The notes below the pieces were generated by a model that was not told where the DNA came from, ran no database searches, and worked only from the letters and a program-made list of their open reading frames with translations. Made by a program: the position numbers and the translations under genes. This document shows positions 10,353-62,375 of a stretch of DNA of 64,000 bases, piece by piece. The DNA is from Candidatus Hydrogenedentota bacterium. GTDB lineage: Bacteria > Hydrogenedentota > Hydrogenedentia > Hydrogenedentales > CAILVY01. The stretch covers positions 802 to 64,801 of the forward strand of contig CAILVY010000207.1 of NCBI GenBank assembly GCA_903837785.1. Direction: 5' to 3'. Numbering within the stretch: the first letter of the stretch is position 1; every line of letters begins with the position of its first letter.

Positions 10353-10383
10353 GATCAGCGGCCGGCGGTTGCTGCGGGGCGGA

Positions 10384-11892: not shown

Positions 11893-11903
11893 GGGAGCAC
11901 CTT

Positions 11904-12827
11904 CTATTTCTGCTTCAGGCTTTCCGCGTCCATGAGTCCGACTTCGACGGGGGCCAGGGACGGCACGGTTTCGCCGCGAAAATGGGCCGCGATCACGTCG
12001 ATGGTCTTCTGTCCAATCTTGTCCGGATACTGCACGGCATCGGCCTTGAGCGCCTTGCCCGCGGCGATGGCCGCCTTGGCCTCGGGCGTTCCGTCGAACC
12101 CGACAATCTTCACTTTGTCCTGGAGTCCCGCGGCCTCGACGGCGGCCAGCGCGCCGAGCGCGGAATCATCATTGATGCCGAAGATGCCGTTGAGATCGGC
12201 GTGCGCCTGGAGAATGTCCTGGGCGGCGCGCATGGCCTTGTCGCGCTGTCCTTCGCCCGGCACCTTGCCAACGATCTGGATTTCGGGGAACTTTGCCATG
12301 GTTTGCTCGAAGCCGCGGACTCGGTCCTGGGCCGAGGCGACGGTCGGGTGGTCGATGATGGCCACTTTGCCCTTGCCGTTGAGGAGTTTGGCGAGGTACT
12401 CGGCGATGATAACGCCGCCATGTTCGTTGTCGGAAGCGATATGCGAAACGACCTGCGCGCCGTGCGCCGCGATATCGGCGGTGAAGACGGGAATGTTCTT
12501 GGCGCGCGCCTCGGCGATAACCGGGTTCAGCCCGCTGGAGTCGGCCGGCGACACGATAATGGCATCGACGCCCTGGGCGATAAAGGTCTCCATCTGGTCA
12601 ATCTGCTTTCGGCTGTCGAATTCCGCATACTGGACGCGCAATTTGAAACCCTGCTTTTCGGCCTCGGACTTCATGGCCGCAACCATATCCTGAAAGAAGA
12701 CATGGGTTTGAGTGAGGAGTGCGGCGCCAATGACCTTCTCCTTGGCGGCCGGGCTCTGGGACGGGCCGCAGCCCGCCGCAATCACGGCGCAACACAGCAC
12801 ACACACCGCCACGCGGATGGCGCTCAT
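11904..12827 (-). CDS. Periplasmic monosaccharide-binding protein (RbsB-like, Peripla_BP_4), lipoprotein-type signal peptide
   Basis: The signal peptide carries a lipobox-like CGPS. The body resembles type-I periplasmic sugar-binding proteins. Confidence 0.85.
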   Translation of the reverse strand: MSAIRVAVCVLCCAVIAAGCGPSQSPAAKEKVIGAALLTQTHVFFQDMVAAMKSEAEKQGFKLRVQYAEFDSRKQIDQMETFIAQGVDAIIVSPADSSGLNPVIAEARAKNIPVFTADIAAHGAQVVSHIASDNEHGGVIIAEYLAKLLNGKGKVAIIDHPTVASAQDRVRGFEQTMAKFPEIQIVGKVPGEGQRDKAMRAAQDILQAHADLNGIFGINDDSALGALAAVEAAGLQDKVKIVGFDGTPEAKAAIAAGKALKADAVQYPDKIGQKTIDVIAAHFRGETVPSLAPVEVGLMDAESLKQK

Positions 12828-12951
12828 AGAAGAACCTCCCTGATGGAATCAATCTACTCTACTGATTCCTGCTCCCGCTTCGCAAGTGCCTCCCGCGTCG
12901 CGGGCCGAGGCGGAACTCCGTCCGGGGGCGCCCGGTTGCAGGCGGAGCATC

Positions 12952-36270: not shown

Positions 36271-36607
36271 TTGGGCATCCACCTCCCTGATGTGAAACAA
36301 GATCCTGGCGCCATTATAGCTCATCTGTTTTCCCGTTCCCGGCGGCGCCCGCCCGCCGATCCCGGTGTGCAATGCCCGCCTTTCAGTCGAGTCGATAGGG
36401 CCCTCTGCGCCGTGGACGGCGTCTTCCCGTTCCTGCTCTCCTGCGAAACAGTCCGGGGCCGGACGCCCTGCCGTCTCCAACCCGGCAACTTGCCTATTGT
36501 GTTCTCAGCGTATGTGTGCTAGAAATAGACTGTCTCGGATCCTCTGCAACGGGAAGGGCGAAGGCATTTGAGACCCCGTGAGGCGGGGAGGAAAGGCGGG
36601 TGCGGTC

Positions 36608-39600
36608 ATGAAGCGCTTTCATTTGCGACGTGCCGTGGGGTGTGCTGTCTTCTGGGCTGTTGTTATGCTGGTTTCGGGCCTATCCGCCGAAGCACAAACC
36701 CACTCCGCGGATCAGAACGGAGACTACCGCATCGACTTGAGCGAACTCCTGCGGGTGATCCAGTTCTTCAACAGCGGGGGGTATCACTGCGAGGCGGGCT
36801 CCGAGGACGGCTATGCCGCCGCCGCGGGCAGCCAGGCTTGCACCACGCACAGCAGCGACTACGACGGCGGGCCAGACTGGGCCATCAATCTTTCGGAACT
36901 CCTCCGGCTCGTGCAGTTCTATAACACCTGCGGCTACGCCCTCGACGCCGCGGGCGAGGACGGCTTCGCCCCTGTCATCTGCGTCTGGCACGTCAAGCCG
37001 GGCGGCACGGGGACCGGTGGCACGACCTGGGATGACGCGTTCGGTTCCATCCAACAGGCGGTGGACGCAGCCGCCGCCCACCACGGCGGCGAGGTCTGGG
37101 TGGGCGTGGGAACGTACACCGGCACGTCGGACAACGTCGTGGTCATGCGAGAGCAGGTCCAACTCTACGGCGGCTTCGCCGGAACGGAGTCGGATCGGGA
37201 CATGCGGGACTGGAGCGCGCACCCGACGATTATCGATGGCGAAGGCGCCCGGCGCTGCGTTGTCGGTGCGAATGACGCGACCTTGGACGGGTTTGTCGTG
37301 CAAGACGGCTATGTGCTTGGGGAAAGAGGCGGGGGGATGTACAACGCCGGAGGTTCCCCGGTAGTCCGAAACTGTAGGTTCGTCAGGAATGGCGCGCTGG
37401 GTGAGGGATACTGTGATTGCGGGGTGAAACGTGGTTGTTACTTAAACGAGGGCTATGGCGGCGGCATGTATAACAGCTTTTCGTCGCCCATAATTGAGAA
37501 CTGCGTCTTCACCGAAAATGTGGCGGACGGATTCGGCGGGGGGATGTATAACGAGGGCGGCGCTTCCCCTGCCGTGACCAATTGCACGTTTTCCGGGAAT
37601 GAGGCCAAGGTCCTGGGGGCATGTGAGTTCTACTGTTCACTCTGTGATCAATCCGGGGGCTTCGGCGGCGGGATGTACACGACCTCGGGCTCGCCTGTAA
37701 TCACGGGATGTGTCTTCTCGGACAACCGGGCCGAATATGCTGGCGGAGGCCTGTACAGCAACGACACGGTAGCCTTGACAGTGACAGGATGCACCTTCGC
37801 CAACAACTCGGCCGGCGGTGGAGCCGGCCTTCTCAACAATTCGAATTCCGCGGTCATCTCCAACTGCACGTTTACGGGTAACGCGGCAAGCGACTCTGGT
37901 GGCGGGCTGAACTGTGCCTGCAAGTTGAACATGACTGCATGCACCTTCTCAAACAATATGGCAGGCCGTGGTGGCGGGCTGAAATTCTCCGGTCAAACAC
38001 CCAGCACGATCTCGGATTGCGTGTTTACGGACAACTCAGTTAGTCGTCAAGGGGGAGGCATGTTTTTGTCCGGCGGATTGGCCCTATTGAATTGCCGCGT
38101 CTCCCAGAATGCCTCCCTGGAAAACGGCGCAGGCATATACTTGGATCGCTCATCTGTTGCCGTAAGGAATACCGAAATCCTGGGAAATCGAGCGGTTTGC
38201 GGGGGTGGTTTGTACGTGGATTCCGGTTCGAATGCGTTCGAGAATTGTGTGCTGTACGCAAACGCGGCCACATACGGCGGTGGGCTGTACATTTACGGAG
38301 CAACAACGCTTACGGCAATGAACTGTACGCTGGTCCGCAATTCTGCCCAATCTGGAAGGGCATTTTATGCGGATGACAAATCCACCCCATTGTTGACAAA
38401 CTGTATCCTCTGGAACGATCCCGGCGGCGAGATAGGCTTGGGCGGCACGGCAATCGCCACGATAACCTACTCGTGTGTTCAGGGCGGATACGATGGCGTC
38501 GGCAATGTTACCGAAGAACCGCTGTTCCTGGACTCGGATAGCGGAAGTCTCAAACTTCGAACAGGTTCCCCCTGCATTGATACCGGAACAGACTCCGGCG
38601 CGCCGGATACGGACTTCAGCGGAGCGCCGCGCCCGCAAGGCGCCGGACATGACATGGGTGCGTATGAGGGAGCCGTGTCCGAAAGCGATATTGTGCACCT
38701 GAACATCGCCGCATCGCCGGCGGATGCGGGTCGAACCGTTCCCTCCGCAGGGACTCACGCCTGTACCCGGGGATCAATCGCAACAGTCGCCGCTACCGGA
38801 GCAGGGATGCGTTTCGTCCGTTGGGAAGGGGATCTGCCGGCCACTTCTTCCACGATTTCTGTTCCAATGGATAGCGACAAGTCAGTCACCGCCGTCTTCG
38901 AAGGAAATATCAGGTACGTGAACGCGGCGAACGACTCGGGCGTGGAAGATGGGTTTTCGTGGGCGACTGCCTTCCGGGAGATCCAGGCGGCTGTGGATGC
39001 CGCGGCCGCCGACAGAGGAGGCGAAGTCTGGGTCGCGGCCGGAACTTACACAGGCGTATCAGGTCAGGTGCTGACCATGCTGCCCACTGTCTCACTGTAC
39101 GGCGGCTTTGCGGGAATAGAGCTTGTTCGGGCGCAGCGAAACTGGGCTGTACATCGGACCATCATAGACGGTGAAAAGACGCGCCGTTGCCTTGAAGGCT
39201 CAGACGAAGCACGCCTCGACGGGTTCGTTTTGCTGGACGGATATGCCAACCAAGGCGGGGGGATGCGCAATCAACTCTCGTCGCCGGTCGTGGCAAACTG
39301 CACCTTCGACAACAACGTTGCGAGTGATGGCGGCGGCATGTTTAACAATGCTTCAGCGCCGGAAATCGTGGATTGCGTATTTGTCGGCAACAGAGCCGGG
39401 CATAGCGATAGCTCTGATGGGGGGGCTATGTACAACCTGAATTCGAGCCCATCCGTGATCAGGTGCGATTTTTCTGGAAACACAGCCGGTAATGCTGGAG
39501 GTGTGTACAATCTTAAGTCGGCACCCACAGTCATCGACAGCGTGTTCAGTACCAACAGCGCTGTCTACGAGGGCGGCGGCATCTGCAACGGTCGGGAAGC

Positions 39601-41359
39601 CTCGCCTACAGTCACCGGGTGCACATTCTCCGGGAACTCTGCGGAGATTGGGGGTGGTATCCGCAATGATACGAAGTCGTCAGCTATAGTCGCCAATTGC
39701 GAGTTCACCGACAACGCTGCCCTTGGCGGCGCCGGGATCGCGAATTCCGAATCCACGCTCACGCTGATCAATTGTACGTTTTCCAGTGGCAGGTCCGTCT
39801 TCGGCGGCGGGATGTACCTCCAAGATTGTTCTACAGTCCTCTGGAACTGTAGTTTCTCCGGCAATAGGGCGGCCATCGGAGGGGGAGTCTACGGCAGCAG
39901 TGCCGCCCTTTCAGCGTCAAACTGCATTCTGTGGGACAACGGAGAAGGGGAAATCGTCCTCAGATACTCAGTCGACATCAATATCACCTACTCCTGCGTT
40001 CAAGGCGGTTACTCAGGCGCGGGCAATATCGACGCCGACCCGCAGTTGCTGGCCGCAGAGAATGGGCGTGTTCGTGTCCGTGCGGAATCGCCCTGCATCG
40101 ATTCGGGCACGGCCTTGGGAGCACCGTCCACGGATATTCTGGGCGCGCCACGGCCGCAGGGGGCGGGAGTAGATATGGGGGCGTACGAAGGCGGGGTGGC
40201 GGCGTGCGACATCGTTTATCTGGTACTGGCGGCCTCTCCCGAGGCAGGTGGACGAACGATCCCGGCAGCCGGGCTGCACCCCTGTGTACGCGGTTCATCC
40301 ATAGCTGCGTCCGCAGTGGGCCTGGGCATGCGATTTGCCCGCTGGGAAGGGGATGTCTCCTCCCCGGCAAGGGATACGATGATTCTCATGGAAGGCGACA
40401 AGGCCGCCACAGCCGTCTTTGAAACGAATATCCTGCGGGTGGATGCCGCCAACACGGGCTGGGAAGATGGGCTGACCTGGGCGACCGCCTTCCGGACCAT
40501 CCAACCGGCGGTCGATATTGCCGCAAACAATGGCGGCGGCGAGATCTGGGTCGCTCAAAGTGTCTACACGAGCACCTCGGACCCTGTCCTCACGATGAAG
40601 TCATCTGTTGCCCTCTATGGAGGATTTGCGGGAATGGAGAGCAGCCGAATGGAACGGAATTGGGTCGAGCATCCGGTGATAATTGATGGCGCCGGCTATC
40701 GAAGGTGCGTCCACGGGGCGGACGACGCCATTCTCGATGGTTTCTCCGCCAGAAATGGCTTCGGGTCCCGCTCAGATAATCGATATATTTCGAACATGGG
40801 CGGCGCAATGCTCAACTATTGTGTCTCTCCAGTCATTGCGAATTGCGAGTTCTTGGGAAACCGTGCAACTTTTGGCGGCGGATTATGCAACTTGGCAGCG
40901 TTTCCCCTTCTGACTAATTGCGTCTTCTTTGACAACTCCGCAACGGCTCAGGGGGGCGGCATGGACAACTCAGCTTCCATGCCGGTTCTGATTAACTGTA
41001 CGTTCTCGGGAAATGTTGCGACGCGAGGCGGAGGCATGTTCAGTGGGAGTTCTTCTCCTACTGTGACAAACTCCATCTTCTGGAACGACATTGGCGGAGA
41101 CTTCGTCAACGAGTCAGGATCCGGTCCGATCGTCACGTTCTCCTGCATCCAGGGCGGCTACGCGGGCGAGGGCAACATTGAAGCGGATCCGCTGTTTGCC
41201 GATGCGGTGAATGGCGACTTGCGGCTGCAAGCGGGTTCGCCGTGCATTGACACGGGGACGGGAGTGGGCGCGCCGGAAACGGACCTCCTGGGCGTGTTGC
41301 GGCCGCAGGGCGCGGGCTATGACATGGGCGCGTATGAATTTGTGCCTCCGAAGCGCTGA
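36608..41359 (+). CDS. Giant secreted surface protein: N-terminal tandem dockerin-like repeats plus three tandem modules of right-handed parallel beta-helix (PbH1 / choice-of-anchor-Q-like, ending ...DxGAYE), the first two each followed by an InlB-B-repeat-like Ig domain
   Basis: A signal peptide is present. Two 22-aa dockerin-like repeats are seen (DQNGDYRIDLSELLRVIQFFN; DYDGGPDWAINLSELLRLVQFYN). There are many NCTF(S/T)xNxA beta-helix rungs. Each module ends SPCIDTGTxxGAPxTDxxGxxRPQGAGxDMGAYE. Confidence 0.8.
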   Translation: MKRFHLRRAVGCAVFWAVVMLVSGLSAEAQTHSADQNGDYRIDLSELLRVIQFFNSGGYHCEAGSEDGYAAAAGSQACTTHSSDYDGGPDWAINLSELLRLVQFYNTCGYALDAAGEDGFAPVICVWHVKPGGTGTGGTTWDDAFGSIQQAVDAAAAHHGGEVWVGVGTYTGTSDNVVVMREQVQLYGGFAGTESDRDMRDWSAHPTIIDGEGARRCVVGANDATLDGFVVQDGYVLGERGGGMYNAGGSPVVRNCRFVRNGALGEGYCDCGVKRGCYLNEGYGGGMYNSFSSPIIENCVFTENVADGFGGGMYNEGGASPAVTNCTFSGNEAKVLGACEFYCSLCDQSGGFGGGMYTTSGSPVITGCVFSDNRAEYAGGGLYSNDTVALTVTGCTFANNSAGGGAGLLNNSNSAVISNCTFTGNAASDSGGGLNCACKLNMTACTFSNNMAGRGGGLKFSGQTPSTISDCVFTDNSVSRQGGGMFLSGGLALLNCRVSQNASLENGAGIYLDRSSVAVRNTEILGNRAVCGGGLYVDSGSNAFENCVLYANAATYGGGLYIYGATTLTAMNCTLVRNSAQSGRAFYADDKSTPLLTNCILWNDPGGEIGLGGTAIATITYSCVQGGYDGVGNVTEEPLFLDSDSGSLKLRTGSPCIDTGTDSGAPDTDFSGAPRPQGAGHDMGAYEGAVSESDIVHLNIAASPADAGRTVPSAGTHACTRGSIATVAATGAGMRFVRWEGDLPATSSTISVPMDSDKSVTAVFEGNIRYVNAANDSGVEDGFSWATAFREIQAAVDAAAADRGGEVWVAAGTYTGVSGQVLTMLPTVSLYGGFAGIELVRAQRNWAVHRTIIDGEKTRRCLEGSDEARLDGFVLLDGYANQGGGMRNQLSSPVVANCTFDNNVASDGGGMFNNASAPEIVDCVFVGNRAGHSDSSDGGAMYNLNSSPSVIRCDFSGNTAGNAGGVYNLKSAPTVIDSVFSTNSAVYEGGGICNGREASPTVTGCTFSGNSAEIGGGIRNDTKSSAIVANCEFTDNAALGGAGIANSESTLTLINCTFSSGRSVFGGGMYLQDCSTVLWNCSFSGNRAAIGGGVYGSSAALSASNCILWDNGEGEIVLRYSVDINITYSCVQGGYSGAGNIDADPQLLAAENGRVRVRAESPCIDSGTALGAPSTDILGAPRPQGAGVDMGAYEGGVAACDIVYLVLAASPEAGGRTIPAAGLHPCVRGSSIAASAVGLGMRFARWEGDVSSPARDTMILMEGDKAATAVFETNILRVDAANTGWEDGLTWATAFRTIQPAVDIAANNGGGEIWVAQSVYTSTSDPVLTMKSSVALYGGFAGMESSRMERNWVEHPVIIDGAGYRRCVHGADDAILDGFSARNGFGSRSDNRYISNMGGAMLNYCVSPVIANCEFLGNRATFGGGLCNLAAFPLLTNCVFFDNSATAQGGGMDNSASMPVLINCTFSGNVATRGGGMFSGSSSPTVTNSIFWNDIGGDFVNESGSGPIVTFSCIQGGYAGEGNIEADPLFADAVNGDLRLQAGSPCIDTGTGVGAPETDLLGVLRPQGAGYDMGAYEFVPPKR
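36974..38903 (+). repeat. Intragenic tandem module 1 (beta-helix + InlB-B-repeat-like), ~643 aa
   Basis: Starts VICVWHVKPGGTGTGGTTWDDAFGSIQQAVDAAAAHHGGEVWVGVGTYTG. Ends ...MDSDKSVTAVFEGN. Confidence 0.7.
38904..40426 (+). repeat. Intragenic tandem module 2, ~507 aa
   Basis: Starts NIRYVNAANDSGVEDGFSWATAFREIQAAVDAAAADRGGEVWVAAGTYTG. Ends ...MEGDKAATAVFETN. Confidence 0.7.
40427..41356 (+). repeat. Intragenic tandem module 3 (truncated, no Ig domain), ~310 aa
   Basis: Starts NILRVDAANTGWEDGLTWATAFRTIQPAVDIAANNGGGEIWVAQSVYT. Ends ...DMGAYEFVPPKR. Confidence 0.7.
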
Positions 41360-52666: not shown

Positions 52667-54271
52667 ATGAATCGGCGTGCATTCATGCAGGGTGTCGCGG
52701 GTACCTTGGCGGCCACAGCGCTCGGAACCCGGGGAAGCGCCGGTGCGGAACCGGCCAAACCCGCGGGCAGGCGGCCCAACATCGTGGTCATTCTCGCCGA
52801 TGACATGGGTTTCTCCGACCTCGGCTGCTATGGCTCGGAGATTCAGACGCCAAACCTCGACGGCCTTGCGGCACAGGGACTCCGCTTCACGCAGGCGTAC
52901 TCCGCCGCGCGCTGCTGTCCCTCGCGCGCCGCGCTGCTCACGGGCCTTTACCCGCATCAGGCGGGCATGGGCGACATGGTCGGCACGGCGAAGAAGCCCC
53001 GGCCGGCCGGACCCTATCAAGGCTACCTCAACCGCCAGTGCGTGACGATTGCGGAAATGCTGCGCACGGCGGGTTACCGGACGTACATGTCGGGGAAATG
53101 GCACGTGGGCGAAGCACCCGAGTATTGGCCGCGCAAACGAGGGTTTGACCGCTACTTCGGCCTGATCAGCGGGGCCAGCTCCTACTTTGGGATTCGCGAG
53201 GAAGAGCGCAAGACCCGCATCATGGCCTGCGACGATACCCGCTTCGTGCCGGAGGGCGATCATTTCTACATGACCGACGCGTTCACGGATCATGCGGTCC
53301 AGTATCTTGAGGAGCATGGCCGTTCCGAGACGCCGTTCTTCCTCTATCTCGCGTACACCGCGCCGCACTGGCCGCTGCATGCATGGCCGGAAGACATCGA
53401 GCGGTACAAGGGTTCTTACCGCATCGGGTGGGACGCCCTCCGGGAGCAGCGCTACCGGCGCCAGCTCGACTTGGGCATCATCAACCCGAAATGGCCCTTG
53501 TCACCGCGCGATGAAGAGGTTCCGCCCTGGGACAGCGTCGAGAACAAGGACGACTGGGATCTGCGGATGGCGGTCTATGCGGCCATGATCAGCCGGATGG
53601 ATCGCGGCATTGGCCGGGTCTTGGAGACGCTGCACAAGCTCGGCGCGGACGAGAACACGCTCGTCCTCTTCATGTCCGACAACGGCGGGTGCCACGAGCG
53701 GATCGACCAGCGGAACCTCAACAAACCGGGCGCCAAGCCGGGCGAGCGGGACTCCTTCGTCGCGTACGAACGGCCGTGGGCCACGGCCAGCAACACTCCC
53801 TTCCGCCTTTTCAAGCATTGGGTGCACGAGGGGGGCATCGCATCGCCGCTCATCGCCCGCTGGCCAGGGCGTATTCGCGAGACCGGCGCGTTGACCCATC
53901 AGGTCAGCCACATCACCGACATCCTGCCCACCTGCCTCGACCTGGCCGGCATCGAGTATCCCGCCTCGTTTGAGGGCAATGCCATCACGCCACTGGCCGG
54001 AAAGAGCCTGCTTCCGGTTCTCGAAGGCAAGACCCGCGAGGCACATCAACGCCTGTTCTGGGAACATGAGAAGAACAAGGCCGTTCGCGAGGGACAATGG
54101 AAACTTGTGGCAACGGCCCGGGGCCAATGGGAGCTCTACGATCTCGAGGCCGACCGCACGGAACTCCACGACCTGGCGAAGCAACAGCCCGAGAAGGCCG
54201 CGGCGTTGCTGCAGGCTTGGGAGGATTGGGCGCGCCGCATCGGTGTTCAGATGGCGGGACAGGAGACTTGA
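52667..54271 (+). CDS. Arylsulfatase (formylglycine-dependent sulfatase, Tat signal)
   Basis: Tat motif (NRRAFMQG). The sulfatase signature CCPSRAALLTG (C-x-P-x-R) and GKWH are present. Length is 534 aa. Confidence 0.9.
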   Translation: MNRRAFMQGVAGTLAATALGTRGSAGAEPAKPAGRRPNIVVILADDMGFSDLGCYGSEIQTPNLDGLAAQGLRFTQAYSAARCCPSRAALLTGLYPHQAGMGDMVGTAKKPRPAGPYQGYLNRQCVTIAEMLRTAGYRTYMSGKWHVGEAPEYWPRKRGFDRYFGLISGASSYFGIREEERKTRIMACDDTRFVPEGDHFYMTDAFTDHAVQYLEEHGRSETPFFLYLAYTAPHWPLHAWPEDIERYKGSYRIGWDALREQRYRRQLDLGIINPKWPLSPRDEEVPPWDSVENKDDWDLRMAVYAAMISRMDRGIGRVLETLHKLGADENTLVLFMSDNGGCHERIDQRNLNKPGAKPGERDSFVAYERPWATASNTPFRLFKHWVHEGGIASPLIARWPGRIRETGALTHQVSHITDILPTCLDLAGIEYPASFEGNAITPLAGKSLLPVLEGKTREAHQRLFWEHEKNKAVREGQWKLVATARGQWELYDLEADRTELHDLAKQQPEKAAALLQAWEDWARRIGVQMAGQET

Positions 54272-54340: not shown

Positions 54341-54366
54341 CGCTTAAGGCGCACTCTTGCGCCTTA
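54341..54366. terminator. Perfect 11-bp-stem hairpin CTTAAGGCGCA-CTCT-TGCGCCTTAAG downstream of the sulfatase gene (intrinsic terminator-like, no T-tract)
   Basis: The inverted repeat is read directly. A second hairpin AGTAGAC-GCATGA-GTCTACT lies at ~54445-54464. Confidence 0.35.
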
Positions 54367-54673
54367 AGCTCACTTGCCCCGAGGCGACCCTGGTGTCTTC
54401 TGACCGGACTGGGGACGCCCGCGGCCTGCACCCGCAGGCCCAAAGTAGACGCATGAGTCTACTTTCAGCACCACTGCTTTCCACGGGCCTCCCCGCATCA
54501 CGAAGCGTTCCCGGGACCGGTCCGTAAGTCGCGGCACTCCGGCGAGTTATGCCGGAGAAGGCCGCTTTCTCAAGGTGCCATGGAGAGGCCGTCCCCGCCG
54601 CCCAAATGCCTGTCGCTGTGCAATGCCCGAAACGGAGGTGTGAAGCCGATGAGGCAAAAGCGAGGGCATCACA

Positions 54674-55936
54674 ATGGCAAGATGGCGGACATGGTTACCG
54701 GGCGGGCCGGGCAAGGGGCGCGCGCAACGCGCGGCGGGAAACACGTCTTCACCGGCGGGCGTGTTTCGGACGGCGTCGCGGGCGGAGGACATGACGGGGT
54801 TCGGCACGATGCTGGACGCGTTCGTGCCACTTCCGAACGCGACGCCGTTTGGCATGTTGCAGGTGTACCGGTTTCTGCGGGATGCGATTCCGGACATTTC
54901 AGACGCGGTGTGGACGTGGAAGCGGCTGTGCCAGACGGGCTTTGACGTCGAGGTGACGGAAGCGAGTTCGGAGGCCGCGTCGCGGCGTGCGGAGCGGCTG
55001 CTGACGGGCCTGAACGAGCGGGTGAACAGCGGCGACCGCGGGATGGACGGACTCCTCGACATCTTCTACACGTCTTTGTTCACGTATGGCGCCGCGGCGC
55101 TCGAGATCGTGCTCACTCAGAGCCGGGAATCGATTTGGGACGTGGTGCCGGTGGACGTGTGGACGGTGCGTTTCAAGCGGGAGTCGGGGCGGCTCCAAGC
55201 CTATCAGGTGCATGACGGGGAAACGATTCCATTGCCGATGGACCGGTTCATCTACGTGGGAATGGACCGGGACGGGACGAACCCCTATGGGCGGTCGATG
55301 CTGCGAAGCATTCCGTTCGTAGTGAAGATCCAGCAGCGGCTGATCGAGGACATGGCAAAGGCGACGCACAATGCCGGGTGGTCCAAGCTGCACGTGCAAT
55401 ACGTACCCGATGCGCGGGCGCGGGGAGAGTCGCAGGAACACTATCAGGCGCGGTTGGCCGGGAACTTCGAGTCGCTTCGCTCGAAGCTGACCGGACTGGA
55501 GACGGACCAGAACCTGGTGACGTACGACAACGTGAAGGTTTCGTTGTTGCGCGGGGACCAGCAGTCGCAGGTGTTTTACGGGAACCACAAGGCGATCGAG
55601 GAACAGGTGATCACGGGGATGCACCTGATGCCGATTCTCCTGGGCCGGAATTACGGGACGACGGAGACGTATGGCACGGCGCAATTCGAGATCGTGAACC
55701 GGCAGGTGGAGGCGGTAAACCGGAGTGTCCAGCGTATTCTGGAGCGCCTCTACAACTTCGAACTGGCGCTGATGTGGGGCGAAGCGAAGGCGCAGGTTCA
55801 CTTTCGCCACAACCGGACGGTGGACGTGTTGAAGGAGGCCCAGGCGCGATCAAAGGAAATCGAGAGCGCACTGCTCCTAAAGGACCGCGGCCTCATCGAC
55901 GCCAAGGAAGCCGCGAAGCGGCTGGGAGCGGTGTGA
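54674..55936 (+). CDS. Phage portal-like protein (call made from position and size; start uncertain, alternative ATG at 54791)
   Basis: A ~380-420-aa protein with a charged helical C-terminus lies immediately upstream of the scaffold/decoration/capsid genes. This is a synteny- and size-based call, not a motif-based one. Confidence 0.45.
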   Translation: MARWRTWLPGGPGKGRAQRAAGNTSSPAGVFRTASRAEDMTGFGTMLDAFVPLPNATPFGMLQVYRFLRDAIPDISDAVWTWKRLCQTGFDVEVTEASSEAASRRAERLLTGLNERVNSGDRGMDGLLDIFYTSLFTYGAAALEIVLTQSRESIWDVVPVDVWTVRFKRESGRLQAYQVHDGETIPLPMDRFIYVGMDRDGTNPYGRSMLRSIPFVVKIQQRLIEDMAKATHNAGWSKLHVQYVPDARARGESQEHYQARLAGNFESLRSKLTGLETDQNLVTYDNVKVSLLRGDQQSQVFYGNHKAIEEQVITGMHLMPILLGRNYGTTETYGTAQFEIVNRQVEAVNRSVQRILERLYNFELALMWGEAKAQVHFRHNRTVDVLKEAQARSKEIESALLLKDRGLIDAKEAAKRLGAV

Positions 55937-56286
55937 TGTTGCCTGCGGCGGCGATTACGGGAACCGGCAGCGTGCTACAGGAAATGCACGATGAGCCAGA
56001 ATGCGATCTCGCCCAGCGTGAGCACACTGAAGATCGTCAGCAGCTTCTTGTCCAGAGGCGAGCCACCCTCGAGCGCACGGGACCACAGCCAGCCAAAGGG
56101 GCGCGGCGCGTTGCAGCAGGGGGAGGATCTCTCCGAGTCGGGGACCGGCTGCATGCAGTCCGGGCGCAAGGGAGTTTCAAGCTCCCGGGTGACTTTCTCA
56201 ATGCCGTCGTTTCCCAGCATGTGTCGCGCCTTTGCCGTGCCGGCTCTGCCGTGCCTGAACGTGTCAACGACTCGATCTACACCTGA
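55936..56286 (+). CDS. Possible small ORF (116 aa) translationally coupled to the portal-like gene (gtgATGa overlap)
   Basis: ATG overlaps the portal-like stop. It fills the otherwise 390-nt gap. Composition is low-complexity and Arg/Ala-rich, so it may be spurious. Confidence 0.25.
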   Translation: MLPAAAITGTGSVLQEMHDEPECDLAQREHTEDRQQLLVQRRATLERTGPQPAKGARRVAAGGGSLRVGDRLHAVRAQGSFKLPGDFLNAVVSQHVSRLCRAGSAVPERVNDSIYT

Positions 56287-56326
56287 AACCGCGTGCGCAT
56301 TCGCACGCCAAGAAGAGGAGCGGAGT

Positions 56327-57367
56327 ATGAGCATGGAGCTTGAACCCTTTGTCTTCCGGCACGAGGGAACCGTAATCGGAATGCGGACGAATCCGGAGGC
56401 GGGGCCGGCGTCGGACGAGGAGGTGTTGCTGGCGGCGGTGAACCGTTTTGCGCTGCGGCCGCTGCGCCGGGATGAGTTCGCGGTGTTTTCGCTCGATTTG
56501 TGCCACAACCAGATCGACAAGCACTTCAGCCGATTCCCTGATGAGGAGCTGGAGAAGATTGACCGGATGACGCCGGGACGGCCGCTGATGGAACGGCATG
56601 ACCTGCGCGGTTCGCTGCCGCGCGGAACCTTCTTCCGCTCGCAGTTGCACCGGGACGAGGCACGGTTGGCGGTGCGGCCCGACGTCTATGTGCTGCGGAC
56701 GGCGGAGAACACGGATTTCATATTGAACATCGAGGGCGGCGTGTACCGGGAGACGTCGATCGGCTTTTCCTTCCGGCTGCCGGAATGCTCGATCTGCGGG
56801 AAGGACATCCGGACCTGCGATCACGTCCCCGGGCGGTCGTACGGGCAGCAACTCTGCTACTTCACGATGCGGGATGTGCTCGACGTCATCGAAGGCTCGG
56901 TGGTGCCTTCGGGATCGCAGGGCACGGGGTTTGTCACGCAGGAGCGCGCGCTGGCGTTGCCGGCGGCGCTCGAAGCGGCGCGCAAGGCGTATCACATGCC
57001 GATCGAAGTGCACGGCGGGGTGGAAGACGCACCGGAAGCGCGCGCGCTGCTCGAGGCGATGGAGGCGCACCGCCTGGCGCCGGGCCAGGTGGCGCAGGCG
57101 GTGGACGACGGCCTGGAAGCGCGGCGGCGGGCGGTGGAACGGTTTTGCGGGCTGGGACGGGAACTGGATGGGCTCGCGTTCGATGAGACGGTTTGGCGGC
57201 GGACACTTGAGCCGCTCACCCTTCGGGAAATTCACCGGCACTTGTCGGCGTATGAGATCCGCTTCGATCAGAAGTACCCGCCCCAGCCCGTATCGCGTCC
57301 GGAACCCCTTCCGGACAGCGGGCCAAAGGGGGTTTCGGAGAGAGCGATGGCGATTCTGCGGGCGTAG
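56327..57367 (+). CDS. Putative prohead scaffold/protease-like protein (lambda gpC/Nu3 position) with a Cys4-type zinc-ribbon-like cluster
   Basis: AAGAGGAG RBS. The C-terminus is helical and Ala/Glu/Arg-rich, so scaffold-like. A CSICGKDIRTCDH cluster is present. Assignment is by position only. Confidence 0.35.
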   Translation: MSMELEPFVFRHEGTVIGMRTNPEAGPASDEEVLLAAVNRFALRPLRRDEFAVFSLDLCHNQIDKHFSRFPDEELEKIDRMTPGRPLMERHDLRGSLPRGTFFRSQLHRDEARLAVRPDVYVLRTAENTDFILNIEGGVYRETSIGFSFRLPECSICGKDIRTCDHVPGRSYGQQLCYFTMRDVLDVIEGSVVPSGSQGTGFVTQERALALPAALEAARKAYHMPIEVHGGVEDAPEARALLEAMEAHRLAPGQVAQAVDDGLEARRRAVERFCGLGRELDGLAFDETVWRRTLEPLTLREIHRHLSAYEIRFDQKYPPQPVSRPEPLPDSGPKGVSERAMAILRA

Positions 57368-57431
57368 CGGCCGGCCACAAGGCCGGCACTCCGCGGAACC
57401 AGGCAGCAACAGCAACAAGAGGAGACACACG

Positions 57432-57812
57432 ATGGCATTCGGAGACGTGGGCGGAGCCGTGACGGAGTTGATCGTCACGTGCATGACGCCGGAACAGGGA
57501 TCGGTGAACATTCGCAAGGGCGACGCCCTCAAGCTCACCGGCGGGTACGAAATCAGCAATGTGACCGACGCGGAGGACGCGGTGTTCGGCCAGGCGATGG
57601 CGGACAGCGCGCTGAACGGCGCGGCCATTCCGGTGAAGGTGCGGGGGATCTGCATCTTCGCCTACACGGGCGATGCGCCCGTGGTGGACGGCGTGAAGGG
57701 CATCCTCGCGTCGGCAACCGACGGGAAGGTGAAGGCGCCCGCGGCGGGGAACGGCGCGGGCATCAATCTGATGGTGGACACGACGGCGGGCACGGTGAAC
57801 GTGCTGCTGTAA
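57432..57812 (+). CDS. DUF2190-like head decoration protein (lambda gpD position)
   Basis: A 126-aa Gly/Ala/Val-rich beta protein sits immediately upstream of the capsid gene. AGAGGAGAC RBS. Confidence 0.5.
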   Translation: MAFGDVGGAVTELIVTCMTPEQGSVNIRKGDALKLTGGYEISNVTDAEDAVFGQAMADSALNGAAIPVKVRGICIFAYTGDAPVVDGVKGILASATDGKVKAPAAGNGAGINLMVDTTAGTVNVLL

Positions 57813-57826
57813 GAAAGGAACGAACG

Positions 57827-58879
57827 ATGGTGTATGACAGCAGTCTGATGAAGGATCAGGCGCGCTTCCTGACGCAGCCGCAGGAGACGCTGCGCGCGAT
57901 GCGGGGGCGCGAACTGTACGAGACGCTCGGGTCGCTCGGGCTGAACCACACGCACTATTTCCGCGCGCTCGGCACGAACGTGCAGGATTACTGCGCGCAG
58001 GAGTTCGGGATCGACCTGGGTCGGATCACCGTGGAGCGCTTCTTCCAGTCGGACCCGGGCGCGAAATGGCTCTTTCCGGACGTGGTGCGGGAGGCGGTGG
58101 TCGCGGGAATGACCCGCAAGCCCGCGTATCCCAGGCTCATCATCCGGGACGAGCACATCTCGAGCGTGGCCTATGACGTGCCGTACGTGGAAGAGAACGA
58201 CGCGAACGAGGAACTGCGGCACGTGGCCGAGGGCGCGGCGATCCCGGAATCGGAGATCACGTATGGGGACCGCGTGGTGAAGCTGGAGAAACTGGGGCGG
58301 GGCGTCATCGCGTCCTACGAGGTGATCCGGCGGATGTCGGTGGACATGCTGCGCGTGCATCTGCAGCGCATCGGGGAGAATCTCGGCCGGAACCTGGACG
58401 CGCGGCTGGCCGCCGTGCTGGTGAACGGGGACAATTCCGGGGCCGGAACCGCCGCGGCGGTGCTGAACACGCACACGGCGAACACGTGGGCGTACCGCGA
58501 TCTCGTGGCGGGCTTCAACAAGCTCACGCTCGAGCATTACTTCACGCCGACGCACATGCTGGCGAACGCGGAGACGCTCGAAGCGATCCTCGACCTCGAC
58601 GAGATCAAGGACAGCGCGCTCTTTGATTTCGCCAAGACGGGCAACCTGCCGACGCCCCTCGGCGTGAATCTGGTGCCGATGGCGGATCAGCCGGCAAACC
58701 AGATCACGATTCTGGATGCGCAGTACGCGGTGCAGAAGCTGACCGAACAGGATCTGCTGGTGGAAAGCGACAAGCTCATCAACCAGCAGTGGGATCGCAC
58801 CTACCTGACGGTCGTCACGGACTTCGCGATTATCTACGCGAAGGCCCGAATCGTTCTGAACAGCGCCTGGCAGGCGTAG
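57827..58879 (+). CDS. Phage major capsid protein (lambda gpE-like / HK97-fold)
   Basis: The 350-aa protein sits at the gpE position after a decoration-like gene. The segment ...AIPESEITYGDRVVKLEKLGRGVIASYEVIRRMSVDMLRVHLQRIGENLGRNLDARLAAVLVNG... resembles capsid protein E-like families. Confidence 0.55.
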   Translation: MVYDSSLMKDQARFLTQPQETLRAMRGRELYETLGSLGLNHTHYFRALGTNVQDYCAQEFGIDLGRITVERFFQSDPGAKWLFPDVVREAVVAGMTRKPAYPRLIIRDEHISSVAYDVPYVEENDANEELRHVAEGAAIPESEITYGDRVVKLEKLGRGVIASYEVIRRMSVDMLRVHLQRIGENLGRNLDARLAAVLVNGDNSGAGTAAAVLNTHTANTWAYRDLVAGFNKLTLEHYFTPTHMLANAETLEAILDLDEIKDSALFDFAKTGNLPTPLGVNLVPMADQPANQITILDAQYAVQKLTEQDLLVESDKLINQQWDRTYLTVVTDFAIIYAKARIVLNSAWQA

Positions 58880-58952
58880 ACAGAAAGCGGGCGGGGGCGC
58901 GGGAACGCGCTCCCGCCGCAGCGCGGGAAACGCAATTAGGGAGGAGACAACG

Positions 58953-59372
58953 ATGGCTGCATTTACGACGGAGGATGCGGTTCGACTCGCGTTTCAGGTG
59001 AATGACAGCGGCTGGACGCCGACGGCACTCGTCCTGTCGAGCATCGATGAGGCCCATGAGGCCATTTTGCGCCGGCTGGACCCTGCGGCAGACACGCAGT
59101 CGCCCGCCGCAGGGCTGGTGCGCGGGGAAACGTTGTTGGCGGGAGCATGCCTGTTGCGCTCGCTGGCCTCCAAGGACGCGGTCCTTCAGAAGGACATCGT
59201 GATCGGCGGACAGCGCATCGAAACGGGACAACGCTTTGCCGCATTGATGGCGCTGAGCGCGAAGGTCGAGGAAGATGCATGGCAGACGCTCGAGCCCTTT
59301 CTCCTGGGTCCCGCCGGGCGCTGTCCTGCGTCGGTCACCGGCACAGTGCCGGTGTTGGGCGAGGGAGGATGA
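58953..59372 (+). CDS. Small phage-associated hypothetical protein (head completion/connector position)
   Basis: A 139-aa protein downstream of the capsid gene. ATGA overlap with the next gene. Confidence 0.35.
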   Translation: MAAFTTEDAVRLAFQVNDSGWTPTALVLSSIDEAHEAILRRLDPAADTQSPAAGLVRGETLLAGACLLRSLASKDAVLQKDIVIGGQRIETGQRFAALMALSAKVEEDAWQTLEPFLLGPAGRCPASVTGTVPVLGEGG

Positions 59373-60064
59373 CGGCCGTGGGGATCATGCTGGGCACCTA
59401 TGCGTTTGATGACGCGCGCACGACGGTCACGGAGAAATACGAGGAGGTGGGCGGACGCGACGCGCGGGTAGTGCAGATCAAGGGACTCCTGGACGGCCTC
59501 GCGTCGGTCGCGGAGCTGGAAGCGGCCCTGGACCAGATCCTCGCCCTGGCTTCTGAACAGGCGGAATGGACGCCGTTGTCCCTGCGGGAAGGGCGTTGGC
59601 TGCAGGTCCGCCGTACGGCGTTCGTCCGCGAGGTAAACCGCGGAGCGCTGGTGGGGAGCTTCACGCTGACTTTCGAGGCGTGCGATCCCTGTGAGACCGG
59701 CGAAGACGAGCGGGAGATTCCGTGGGCCATTACGGCCTCCGGGCAGAGCGTGGCATTGCCTGCGGCAGGAACGGCCGAGGCGCCGCTCCGCATCACCTTG
59801 CAGGCCAACGGCAACCTGCTCGAACCGGTGTTCAGCGACGGCGTGCGGCAGCTTCTGTATTGGGGCACGGTCCAGACGGGTCAAGTCCTGGTGCTGGACG
59901 GGGCCGCCGGATGTGCCTTGCTGAATGGCCAGGACGTAACGCCGTATACGCAAGGTCTGTTTCCGCGCGTGCGGCCCGGCGGGTCGGTGCTTCGGTACAC
60001 CGGCAGCGTGGGCAGCACCCATGCCGCGAGCGCCACCGTGGCCTACCGGGACAGGTGGTGGTAA
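59369..60064 (+). CDS. Phage-associated hypothetical protein, possibly distal-tail (Dit)-like
   Basis: A 231-aa protein. A weak resemblance to siphovirus Dit/Rcc01695-type proteins is seen (ELEAALDQILALASEQAEWTPLSLREGRWLQVRRTAF). Confidence 0.3.
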   Translation: MTAVGIMLGTYAFDDARTTVTEKYEEVGGRDARVVQIKGLLDGLASVAELEAALDQILALASEQAEWTPLSLREGRWLQVRRTAFVREVNRGALVGSFTLTFEACDPCETGEDEREIPWAITASGQSVALPAAGTAEAPLRITLQANGNLLEPVFSDGVRQLLYWGTVQTGQVLVLDGAAGCALLNGQDVTPYTQGLFPRVRPGGSVLRYTGSVGSTHAASATVAYRDRWW

Positions 60065-60066
60065 GC

Positions 60067-61806
60067 ATGGAATACACCATCGAGATCTACGACACCTGCG
60101 GGCGGCGCATGCGTGCCTATGCGCAGGCGCCCTTGCTGGATGTGGTGCGCGGGGGGCCGGACGCGCCGGATGTGGTGCGGGGCCTCCTGCCCAAGGAGAT
60201 CGCACAACTGGGCCACGCGTTTCGCGTGCGGGTGCTCGTAAACGGCGTGGCGCTGTGCGATGCCCGCGTTGACTTGACGAGCCCCTGGTGGAGCGACTCG
60301 GTCAAGCTTATTCTGGACAAGTACGTGCCGTTTCATGAGGTCGTCGAATTCGAGGCACACTGCTGCAAGGACGAACTGAACGGCTGGGTGTCCCAGGCGT
60401 ACGCGAACAAGGAAGTCAGCGCCATCGTGAAGGATGTGATCAACCGGGCGCCCGGTCCGGTCCATTACGGGGTGGCGCATACGGGATACCCGGAAGGGGC
60501 CTGGCGGGAGCACCTGAAATTCCTGGCACGGAAGACCGGGGACAATGAACTGGAGGTGGGGGGCAACTCGCGCGGGCAGTGGGTTGGCGCAGATCGCATC
60601 GATGCGAGCGGGGCGTATGCCAAGGATGGCGACACGATCGCGGGCATCAAGGTGGATGGGCAGCCGTGGCCGGATATCCGTTTGATGATGATTGACTCGG
60701 AAGAGTTGGAGCGAAACAGCCATGCCATCGCGCGGCATCCGGAGGTGGCCGGCTGGACCGACGCGCAATATGCCGCGAGCGGATACCGGCGGCTGGCGGA
60801 GGCCGCACGGGATCGGCTTCTTTACGAGATGGTCGTGCGCGGGATCGACTACATCGAACTCAACCCGCACAAGAATGCAGCCGGTGAATACGATGATCGC
60901 GTGGACCAATACGGCCGCTATCTTGCCCTCGTCTTCGGAGGTTCCGTGTGCTTCAACGCGGCCATGGTCGAACGCGGGCTGGCGGACGTGTACTTGTGGG
61001 AAGAGGGGCGCTACCACGCGCCGGAACTGGCGCTGAAGGAGTTCTACTCCTACGCCGGCGCAACAAAGGAGTCTATCGTGCCCACCGGGACGGCCCTGGG
61101 GAGCTTCGACGTGCGCAGCGGCGCGCTGGAAGTGATCACCGCCCTGGCCTACGCGGCCGGCGGCTACATCTTCTCCGTGGATGCGGACAGGACGGTGCAT
61201 TTTCGCCCTGCGGCCGCCGTGGATCGCGTCGTGTGCTTCGACCCGCTGCGGCACGGTGTGCAACTCGGCGCGCGCTCAGGCGCCCTCTGCAACGAAGTCT
61301 GGTTCCAGGGCAATCCGATGAGCTTCGTGGCAGGCGAACTATTCGCGCGGGAGGACAGCATCCGCGAATACGGCGTGCAGCGCCGGCAGCTTTCCTTCTT
61401 CTCGGTGTCGCGTTCGGACGACGCCGGGCGGATCCTGGACGGCCTGCTGGCGGACCTGGCGTATCCGGAGCCTTCGGGGTCCATCACGTTCTTCGGGGGA
61501 AAGCCCGAGCTACGCGTGGGCGAGATTGTGGAAGTGCGGGGCGCGCCGCTGCGCCGCCTGGAACCGGAGCTGGCCGGGGAATGGGACGGCCGCTTCACGG
61601 GAAAACTGGTGGGGCGCATCCGCTCGCTGCGGCACCGCTTCACCGGCGCACACCTGGAGACGGTGGCGTACCTGGGATCGCCCCTGCGATCGGTGGCAGA
61701 TCCGCTGGCCTTTCTGGTGCGGAGCCAGGAGCCCGCGGGCAATCTCTATGCGTTTCGGCTCGATGACGCGACTGTGGGACTGGATATGGGATTTCATCTG
61801 GACTAG
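60067..61806 (+). CDS. Phage-cluster protein carrying a complete staphylococcal-nuclease (SNase/thermonuclease)-like domain
   Basis: The central ~150 aa carry the SNase motifs DGDTIAGIKVDG...IRLMMIDSEELE...GRYLALVF...NAAMVERGLADVY. These follow the canonical order DGDT ... RL.GIDxPE ... YGR ... N..LV..GLA.VY. Unrelated N- and C-terminal domains flank the nuclease domain. Confidence 0.6.
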   Translation: MEYTIEIYDTCGRRMRAYAQAPLLDVVRGGPDAPDVVRGLLPKEIAQLGHAFRVRVLVNGVALCDARVDLTSPWWSDSVKLILDKYVPFHEVVEFEAHCCKDELNGWVSQAYANKEVSAIVKDVINRAPGPVHYGVAHTGYPEGAWREHLKFLARKTGDNELEVGGNSRGQWVGADRIDASGAYAKDGDTIAGIKVDGQPWPDIRLMMIDSEELERNSHAIARHPEVAGWTDAQYAASGYRRLAEAARDRLLYEMVVRGIDYIELNPHKNAAGEYDDRVDQYGRYLALVFGGSVCFNAAMVERGLADVYLWEEGRYHAPELALKEFYSYAGATKESIVPTGTALGSFDVRSGALEVITALAYAAGGYIFSVDADRTVHFRPAAAVDRVVCFDPLRHGVQLGARSGALCNEVWFQGNPMSFVAGELFAREDSIREYGVQRRQLSFFSVSRSDDAGRILDGLLADLAYPEPSGSITFFGGKPELRVGEIVEVRGAPLRRLEPELAGEWDGRFTGKLVGRIRSLRHRFTGAHLETVAYLGSPLRSVADPLAFLVRSQEPAGNLYAFRLDDATVGLDMGFHLD

Positions 61807-61853
61807 GCGCATGACGCGGCGTGCCGCAAGGGAACTACGAAGGAGACTGAGGC

Positions 61854-62375
61854 ATGGCAATCAAGGGACCGGGCTATCTGAAGACGACGTGGGCGTTTGA
61901 GGAACGCCCCGTGGCTTCGACGAAACTGAACACGTGGGACGACCGGATTGAAGCCGCGCTCGAAGCGGCCTTCTTCCTGCTCAATCTCGCCTGGGGCGGC
62001 GGGAACGGCGTCTTGCGCGGCGCGACCACGGACAACTTGCGGGTGGTCGCACTGCCGGCGCCCGGGCTGTCCGTGCAGGTGCAGCCGGGCTACGCGTTCA
62101 TCAGCAAGTTTCCCTACAAGCTGGCGCAAACGACGGACACGGTGGCAGTGACGCCGCCGGCCGCCCTTCCCCGCCTCGATCTCGTCCAGGCCTGTCTTGA
62201 CACCTGGAGCGTGAGCGTCAAGCCGGGCGCGGAAGCGGAGAGTCCGAATCCTCCGGGCGCCGACAATCACTGCATCCCGCTGGCGCACCTTTACCTGCGG
62301 CCCGGGATGACCAGCGTCAAGAATACGAATGATGATGTCAATGGCTACATCATCGATGCGCGGATCTACGTGTAA
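61854..62375 (+). CDS. Phage-associated hypothetical protein (173 aa)
   Basis: Last co-directional gene of the module. No recognisable motif. Confidence 0.35.
   Translation: MAIKGPGYLKTTWAFEERPVASTKLNTWDDRIEAALEAAFFLLNLAWGGGNGVLRGATTDNLRVVALPAPGLSVQVQPGYAFISKFPYKLAQTTDTVAVTPPAALPRLDLVQACLDTWSVSVKPGAEAESPNPPGADNHCIPLAHLYLRPGMTSVKNTNDDVNGYIIDARIYV

Follow-up and report, generated by a model that had tools for sequence, protein, structure and literature searches.

The cases in which cells are established to have domesticated the particle of a tailed phage are few, namely the gene transfer agents (GTAs) of Alphaproteobacteria, Bartonella and Brachyspira, along with some candidates. Here we describe an eight-gene block at positions 54674-62375 of a 64,000-nucleotide stretch (the window) of contig CAILVY010000207.1 from a Candidatus Hydrogenedentota bacterium, which encodes a full set of head assembly proteins together with a minimal neck and a tail tip of siphovirus type. 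In PMC9662315, the structural cluster of Brachyspira BhGTA/VSH-1 is described as being without the large terminase gene (terL), the sole terL lying elsewhere as a highly conserved, single-copy gene, and the BhGTA proteins as sitting on long branches apart from all phages. Like BhGTA (Brachygtaviriformidae), the Hydrogenedentota cluster to which the block belongs is chromosomal, derived from caudoviruses and probably inherited vertically; it includes lysis genes and has no terL. We found nothing in the literature tying Hydrogenedentes/Hydrogenedentota to capsids or GTAs, and rate the locus as a previously undescribed, independent, phylum-scale phage domestication with a distinctive reduced architecture. 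The host phylum is part of the FCB group, not of the PVC bacteria among which an earlier note on this DNA had placed it.

Gene calling based on GC content at third codon positions (GC3) in this 64% GC window fills the block with eight co-directional genes:

54674-55936, + strand: G1, portal protein, 420 aa (Pfam and PHROG matches)
56327-57367, + strand: G2, putative prohead protease with a scaffold-like C-terminal domain, 346 aa (motifs)
57432-57812, + strand: G3, candidate capsid cement/decoration-like protein, 126 aa (PHROG match)
57827-58879, + strand: G4, HK97-fold major capsid protein (MCP), 350 aa (Pfam and PHROG matches)
58953-59372, + strand: G5, probable head-tail adaptor, 139 aa (position)
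59369-60064, + strand: G6, distal tail protein Dit, 231 aa (Pfam and PHROG matches)
60067-61806, + strand: G7, predicted baseplate hub with an inserted staphylococcal-nuclease (SNase) domain, 579 aa (structure model)
61854-62375, + strand: G8, receptor-binding-protein (RBP) 'shoulder'/TssK-N-like baseplate protein, 173 aa (RBP-shoulder fold)

Independent assemblies of the same organism give an identical series of calls after the portal gene (346, 126, 350, 139, 231, 579 and 173 aa), which bears out the eight co-directional genes of the earlier note and shortens its second product from 347 to 346 aa. The ATGA start-stop overlap between G5 and G6 is genuine.

The first four genes form the head module. 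Both the portal and the HK97-fold capsid calls, made previously from the sequence, are carried by profile matches: G1 to Pfam PF06074 Portal_Mu (36.8 bits, cut-off 23.9, 3.7e-9) and to PHROG 3753, portal (1.9e-45); G4 to PF25209 (8e-16) and to PHROG 3922, major head protein (3.6e-50). Over residues 5-414, G1 shares 72% identity with the family's reference member, and the ratio of nonsynonymous to synonymous substitution rates (dN/dS) is 0.08-0.17 for G1 and 0.03-0.15 for G4. G2 is composite. Its N-terminal part (about residues 1-231) shares 69% identity with a stand-alone 240-aa protein of the family (C2 below), and its C-terminal ~107 aa align with the C-terminal part of a separate 245-aa protein (C4 below); the fused C-terminal part has a dN/dS of 0.10, and the same in-frame fusion of protease and scaffold-like domain is found in four related loci (L007, L008, L010 and L087). 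The best profile for G2 is PHROG 16951, of unannotated function (6e-35). By eye, it shares three collinear blocks with HK97 gp4, reading ..ERHD.., ..ETSIGFS.. and ..EGSVVPSGSQ.., in which the H of ERHD, the S of TSIGF and the E of EGSVV are invariant in 35 sequences; Pfam, NCBIfam, a PDB profile search and hhalign against HK97 gp4 returned no significant match indicating protease kinship. These motifs hint at an S78-type (HK97 gp4-type) prohead protease. G3 matches the virion structural protein family PHROG 4588 (1.1e-7) and its position corresponds to that of a 129-aa gene in Bacillus phage CUBc25. It had been put forward as a DUF2190-like decoration protein; the virion role is upheld, the DUF2190 likeness less so, the matches to PF09956 Phage_cement_2 (formerly DUF2190) being weak and confined to 8 of 33 family members (best 0.008), with nothing significant in a PDB sequence search. 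G3 may thus be a cement/decoration-like protein.

The earlier note called the block a head-gene module; its last four genes belong to the neck and tail tip, and the block is therefore more than a head module. G5 lies directly 3′ of the MCP gene, is predicted to be mostly helical and is kept in 46 of the 50 loci with sufficient downstream sequence. Its sole sequence evidence is a match of one of 37 members to the PHROG 'head-tail adaptor Ad1' (0.007), with hhalign against HK97 gp6, a PDB HMM search and a PDB sequence search all negative; given its position, G5 is probably the head-tail adaptor. G6 matches the C-terminal domain of SPP1_Dit (PF22768, 26.8 bits, cut-off 25, 6.2e-6), PHROG 5577, minor tail (6e-13), and PHROG 33, Dit (3e-10). 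In its AlphaFold2 model (pLDDT 84, pTM 0.80), G7 is a baseplate hub of the gp27/gp44/Tal/VgrG fold into which an SNase domain is inserted at about residues 180-325. The modelled domain has the OB-fold, the Ca2+ ligands D21/D40 and the catalytic R35, E43 and R87 of thermonucleases, and its Ca2+ ligands and catalytic Arg/Glu are conserved across the family; it apparently would be active as a nuclease. Such an insertion was seen in none of the best structural matches to the hub, nor did we find a thermonuclease/SNase-bearing baseplate hub described in the literature. G8 is an RBP-'shoulder'/TssK-N-like protein reduced to the shoulder domain; a PDB sequence search with it gave nothing significant. 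Given these siphovirus-type tail-tip genes, the tailless particle entertained in the earlier note is borne out only in part.

Homologues of the MCP number 360, the best 120 being 341-352 aa long and 69-89% identical, and the names available for them are nearly all Candidatus Hydrogenedentes/Hydrogenedentota. In a scan of one genome per GTDB species, the cluster was present in at least 107 species-level genomes, at one copy per genome; 80 of the 107 loci were retrieved, each from another assembly, together with six contexts from further assemblies. All of the relatives are metagenome-assembled genomes or metagenome contigs. The full cluster comprises 10-13 genes, of which the window block is a reduced form, and in L004, whose coordinates we use, the canonical arrangement is as follows:

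C1: portal protein
C2: putative protease, 240 aa
C3: small coiled-coil/membrane protein
C4 (L004:8744-9481): 245-aa protein, phosphoesterase plus scaffold-like domain
C5: cement-like protein
C6: MCP
C7: adaptor-like protein
C8: Dit
C9: predicted hub, 579 aa
C10: shoulder protein, 173 aa
C11: 167-aa protein, endolysin-like
C12: 122-aa membrane protein, holin-like

Gene order is kept upstream of the MCP in 54 of 56 loci, both exceptions having portal and protease 8 kb away, and downstream of it in about 46 of 50. In C4, the first 100 residues form a LigD-type 3′-phosphoesterase domain (PDB 3p43, 3.7e-8) with an invariant His/Asp/Arg motif; most family members carry this phosphoesterase-scaffold fusion, and no scaffold fused to a LigD phosphoesterase has been described in the literature that we searched. 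C11, present in 18 of 40 loci, matches PHROG endolysins (6.6e-7) and has the SxHxxGxAxD...HxH motif typical of M15/LAS peptidases. C12, present in 34 of 40, is tentatively regarded as a holin, with a PHROG match at 3.6e-4. In the window clade (with L007, L008, L010 and L087) the fusion of C2 to the scaffold-like half of C4 is accompanied by deletion of C3 and of the phosphoesterase, and the window itself is also without C11 and C12: tblastn with both found nothing there. The earlier statement that lysis genes are missing is accordingly right for the window, which has neither gene for release by lysis, and does not extend to most of the family, which has the endolysin, the holin-like gene or both. 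Another variant is seen in six lineages that include Candidatus Hydrogenedens (L060, L075, L077, L078, L084 and L085), in which C11/C12 directly follow the MCP gene and host genes come next. The downstream flanks common to these lineages were considered as a source of alternative tail genes and turned out to encode transporters and sugar enzymes.

Several loci carry additional features. In 16 of them (L034:6822-8501 and 15 others, not the window) a protein of 270-620 aa with a signal or anchor sequence is inserted between C2 and C3; its N-terminal PRYLEELRVGGGYGD..DGG and its end, ..APG.VRL.S.NG...LF..DDG.L.I...LP.S.TDG, are conserved, its middle is highly variable and it has no Pfam match. 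Its features suggest a surface or fibre protein undergoing diversification within the head module. Between the portal and protease genes, L063 (7183-7920) and L079 (6156-6830) have an extra gene for a cement-protein paralogue that is extended by ~100 aa at its C terminus, and in L063 an insertion sequence (IS)-type transposase gene of lower GC3 lies between the MCP and adaptor-like genes (11136-12227), with neither open reading frame (ORF) broken. These extra genes in the gaps were examined as possible large terminases (TerL) and rejected, being the variable secreted protein, the cement paralogue and the IS transposase. In L002 (GCA_963852985.1, a 6.6-Mb contig) the cluster is split (270-2400 versus 9567-14922), with portal and protease 8 kb off on the opposite strand and dioxygenase, DUF892 and AI-2E transporter genes in between; L015 has lost the upstream half in the same way as L002. 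Contigs labelled 'uncultured Nitrospirales/Nitrospiraceae' (L008, L010, L023, L024 and others), 'Candidatus Bathyarchaeia archaeon' and 'Planctomycetota bacterium' (L048 and L058 are among such loci) also carry the cluster, at 70-83% MCP identity, which points to mislabelled or contaminated bins rather than to presence in those taxa.

We have little doubt that this locus is domesticated and selectively maintained. A long-resident, domesticated capsid system was what the earlier note preferred over a recent prophage, and conservation, selection, GC content, close-pair synteny, an identity gap and absence from IMG/VR all speak for it. Among 1.84e9 representatives of 50%-identity clusters, the family amounts to one full-length cluster plus fragments: its MCPs are 62-100% identical to each other and at most 37% identical to the nearest outsiders, the nearest phages being at ~30%. 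Patterns derived from the MCP found no relative in the 2.9 million viral contigs of IMG/VR. The cluster has a chromosomal setting, on contigs of up to 6.6 Mb and among genes that include holA, lptE, asd and those for thioredoxin and ribonucleotide reductase, and the GC content of the module (54-74%) tracks that of its flanks (52-71%; r=0.87, n=59 loci). In the window, the block has a GC of 0.649 versus 0.634 for the remainder and its eight genes a host-like GC3 of 0.74-0.83, in line with the composition indistinguishable from the host that had been reported for it. Nei-Gojobori dN/dS values for every gene in 13 genome pairs range from 0.02 to 0.61, are below 0.33 in all but one comparison and lie at 0.09-0.29 between the window and L087. 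Divergence between pairs of loci co-varies from one module gene to another (r=0.55-0.79), and the portal is conserved as much as the MCP (median pairwise identity 0.68, dN/dS ~0.1). Internal stops are limited to two in ~600 family ORFs; these, in L047 (C9, codon 361) and L027 (C7, codon 106), may be real pseudogenes or assembly errors.

Such values leave little room for a decaying, defective prophage remnant, or for the edge of an intact prophage that continues past the window, an explanation we find barely credible. It would account for the missing terminase, tube, tape measure and integrase genes, and for the gene-fusing deletion and the lost lysis genes of the window copy. A remnant is hard to reconcile with purifying selection in 13 independent pairs, over dS values that extend to saturation, with so few stops, with a cluster present in so many species genomes and with a fusion that is in frame, clade-wide and itself under selection. 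As to a prophage edge, only 1,349 bases of the contig fall outside the window and the next gene is a host gene for a GxGYxYP protein; no full prophage adjoins the block. Close relatives, where loss or pseudogenisation would have told against the earlier note's reading, keep the locus intact. Among the usual marks of a prophage, an integrase, att sites, a lysogeny/replication module, a terminase and an atypical composition or distribution were all not found, and no att-like direct repeat or adjacent tRNA borders the block.

Six close pairs of genomes have homologous flanks on corresponding sides of the cluster, and more distant pairs, including the window versus L087, L007 and L010, do not. Among 84 loci, no family of flanking genes is seen in more than 6, which implies that nothing else belongs to the element. 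Flanks that differ between moderately diverged genomes are what one would expect of a helper-dependent satellite which makes its own heads and tail tips and borrows its terminase and tube module from phages, like capsid-forming phage-inducible chromosomal islands (cf-PICIs), and a full head set without packaging genes and with an incomplete tail would suit such an element as well. Satellites are normally patchy and mosaic. This family is a tight clade with no intermediates and none of its members in IMG/VR, single-copy, near-universal in gene order, ameliorated in GC to each host and at the same chromosomal site in close relatives; integrase, replication, regulatory or small-terminase genes adjoin the cluster in no locus, and the features that define a cf-PICI or satellite are not found. 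We consider a satellite improbable.

Our judgement that the cluster is probably inherited vertically is built on its restriction to one phylum, its single copy, GC content, the flanks of close pairs, the identity gap and the absence from IMG/VR. Set against the description of viriforms (Kogay et al. 2022, PMC9662315), the locus has chromosomal, caudovirus-derived particle genes and purifying selection (the 13 pairs and the two stops in ~600 ORFs given above), and an available DNA-packaging terminase is found neither at the locus nor in the window.

A terminase, tail tube or tape measure gene is present in the cluster of no member (84 loci examined; whole genomes were not searched for terL or tail genes), and a Walker A motif is conserved in no family of the module (one of 64 Dit sequences matched, the others none). 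Beyond the block, Pfam and PHROG scans of the 39 other proteins of the window, of which the best 25 families per scan were considered, listed no terminase, integrase or tape measure among their matches, as the earlier note had said; a tail tube or lysis gene was likewise not found in the 64 kb. The sulfatase gene just upstream of the portal gene, whose 534-aa product has the size and position of a terminase, was considered as a disguised TerL and ruled out by its match to PF00884 (3.7e-65). A cluster without terminase, tube and tape measure is read by us as most likely encoding a GTA-like particle with its terminase supplied in trans. That the block is a domesticated particle operon (viriform) of GTA-like type, with the terminase elsewhere, we regard as an evenly balanced call. 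That the operon builds a particle composed of head and tail tip is probable. That this putative particle carries and transfers DNA is a tentative proposal, to which we give somewhat less than an even chance.

Under the GTA-like reading, an ancestor of Hydrogenedentota would have domesticated a structural operon of caudovirus origin, which was from then on inherited as an ordinary chromosomal locus. The portal would nucleate a procapsid in which the HK97-fold MCP assembles around the scaffold-like domain (fused to the protease in the window), the S78-like protease would mature the shell and the cement protein would stabilise it. A single adaptor-like protein, presumably as a dodecamer, may then join the portal and a very short tail tip of siphovirus type, which would consist of a Dit hexamer ring closed by the trimeric hub, with the shoulder-only RBP-like protein attached and the Ca2+-type non-specific nuclease displayed by the hub. 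This would give a head that bears a stub-like tail and is filled with DNA by a terminase from another locus. In most other members the LigD-type 3′-phosphoesterase might be carried inside the head on the scaffold-like domain, and release of the particles by lysis would fall to the M15/LAS-type endolysin and the small holin-like membrane protein; the window lineage would have lost endolysin, holin-like protein and phosphoesterase altogether.

A number of observations weigh against this scheme. With no terminase in the cluster or the 64 kb, and whole genomes unsearched, DNA packaging is an assumption. No terminator or stopper is found in the cluster, and we know of no solved precedent for a stack of portal, adaptor, Dit and hub; a non-specific nuclease placed at the DNA exit would also fit poorly with a device that delivers DNA. 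The protease and adaptor calls are based on motifs and position, with no significant profile matches. The Candidatus Hydrogenedens-type lineages have no adaptor, Dit, hub or shoulder gene, which makes the tail-tip module dispensable or a later addition, and since the window in turn has no lysis genes, neither module is universally required. Finally, the flanks of the window differ from those of relatives at 82-89% MCP identity, and in the family flanks differ at 82-92%, so that some relocation of the cluster is possible.

Several of the same facts would be at home with a domesticated capsid free of DNA, that is, a portal-bearing HK97 shell with protein cargo (the phosphoesterase in most lineages) and a nuclease baseplate, serving as an enzyme carrier, a processor of extracellular DNA or a bacteriocin-like device. 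In such a particle a terminase or Walker A ATPase, not found in the cluster in 84 loci, and a tube or tape measure to conduct DNA would not be needed; the enzyme fused to a scaffold-like domain recalls cargo loading in encapsulins, the seemingly intact catalytic site of the hub SNase is comparable to effector-bearing VgrG spikes, and lineages with head and lysis genes only do exist. It leaves unexplained why the portal is as conserved as the MCP; to our knowledge a portal has no role beyond DNA passage and tail attachment, and we know of no DNA-free capsid system that contains one. Moreover, some lineages have the phosphoesterase and no nuclease, or the reverse, and the window variant has no cargo domain while the remaining operon is still under selection. 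On balance a DNA-free particle is rather unlikely in our view.

SNase leaves 3′-phosphate ends and the LigD phosphoesterase removes 3′-phosphates, a shared chemistry that makes the pairing of hub nuclease and phosphoesterase suggestive; a strict functional coupling was set aside for the reason just given, each being found alone in some lineages. It is doubtful that a portal-bearing HK97 capsid without terminase, tube and tape measure, joined directly to a nuclease-armed baseplate and loaded in most lineages with a 3′-phosphoesterase that heals DNA ends, represents a new class of virus-derived particle that does not perform transduction in the style of RcGTA. Possible roles for such a particle include terminase-independent loading, enzyme delivery and the processing of extracellular or recipient DNA.

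The region upstream of the operon holds a sequence shared with relatives. In the window, GTGCAAT at 54618-54624 is followed by GGTGTGAAG, the whole motif spanning 54618-54645 on the + strand, upstream of the portal gene. It takes the general form GTGCAA(C/T), ~14-15 nt and TAnAGnG/GTGAA, and 21 of 59 loci, window included, have it 40-90 nt before the portal gene, versus ~2.5 expected by chance; the form RGTGCAAYR has a single further occurrence in the 64 kb. This suggests a putative promoter or regulator site shared by the operons. A scan for sigma-70 promoters and terminators performed no better than on shuffled sequence, and an Rfam scan of the block region gave no credible RNA. Two perfect hairpins occur in the 400-nt spacer between the sulfatase and portal genes:

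54343-54368: hairpin 1, CTTAAGGCGCA-CTCT-TGCGCCTTAAG
54442-54465: hairpin 2, AAAGTAGAC-GCATGA-GTCTACTTT

Both are probably terminators that would insulate the operon from the upstream gene.

A second spacer, between the portal gene and G2, is ~390-396 nt long in the window versus 13-80 nt in most loci, and contains an antisense ORF:

55975-56220, - strand: small ORF of ~81 aa with a C-terminal membrane helix

It is called as an 81-aa gene in another assembly and shows weak conservation with the 94-aa ORF found in the corresponding spacer of L087 (8109-8393, - strand), which combines a CxxC...CxxC zinc ribbon with a transmembrane helix; two of the four Cys are substituted in the window copy. 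The ORF is specific to the clade and absent from most loci, and whether it belongs to the system is uncertain.

The flanking genes are those given in the earlier note:

52667-54271: upstream flank, sulfatase, 534 aa (the arylsulfatase of the note; PF00884)
from ~62449 past the window end: downstream flank, GxGYxYP protein

The rest of the window, as judged from the 39 proteins scanned, is of housekeeping character (UvrA, cytochrome bd, GidA, the RmlD pathway, ABC transporters). Its sole stretch of lower GC (0.575, 38-40 kb) falls within an ORF at 36578-41359 (+ strand) whose 1593-aa product contains repeats of the Chlamydia-PMP and InlB-B types and is probably a large surface protein of beta-helical structure, unrelated to the block; it had been considered as a tape measure and was ruled out on account of these PMP-repeat/beta-helix features.

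If the domestication is as we propose, it adds to the known set a case that spans much of an almost uncultured phylum, with an unusually stripped architecture and two nucleic-acid enzymes placed within structural proteins. It would offer a target defined by sequence on which to study how small a tailed-phage virion may become before the cell no longer profits from it. The MCP, a single tight cluster in 1.8 billion representatives, can serve as a marker for Hydrogenedentota in metagenomes, and the particle may be a route of gene exchange in the digester, groundwater and sediment communities where Hydrogenedentota are common.

Among phages, the closest annotated one is Bacillus phage vB_BcM_CUBc25, which has the same order of portal, protease/scaffold, small cement-like protein and MCP, at 31% (portal) and 27.5% (MCP) identity. 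In CUBc25 TerL directly precedes the portal, and ~10 neck/tail genes and a tape measure follow the MCP; both of these blocks are cleanly absent in Hydrogenedentota. The protease-scaffold fusion of the window resembles lambda C/Nu3. Compared with the siphovirus baseplates of SPP1 (Dit, Tal gp21, gp22), of lactococcal phages p2/1358 and of Haloferax tailed virus 1, the predicted tail tip differs in the SNase insertion of its hub, its shoulder-only RBP and the lack of a tube above Dit.

With cf-PICIs the cluster shares a self-sufficient set of head genes without a full tail, but it lacks integrase, replication and packaging genes and shows no sign of being mobile. Like encapsulins it combines a cell-encoded HK97-fold shell with, in most members, an enzyme on a shell-directed domain; unlike them it has a portal, a putative maturation protease and tail-tip genes, Dit and hub among them. 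Capsid and portal genes, with no tube or sheath found, set it apart from tailocins and extracellular contractile injection systems as well. In RcGTA and the other alphaproteobacterial type I GTAs the small and large terminases TerS and TerL head the cluster, which also has stopper, terminator, tube and tape measure genes; the Hydrogenedentota cluster has none of these and carries instead the nuclease-bearing hub and, in most members, the phosphoesterase-scaffold fusion. No sequence kinship with RcGTA, BaGTA or BhGTA goes beyond shared folds. The BhGTA particle has a flexible tail of 65 nm, and its packaging of host DNA (7.5 kb) is proven; the Hydrogenedentota cluster has no tube or tape measure gene and is defined by its genes. 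The two have no sequence relationship, and whereas BhGTA is the agent of one genus, the Hydrogenedentota family extends over much of a phylum.

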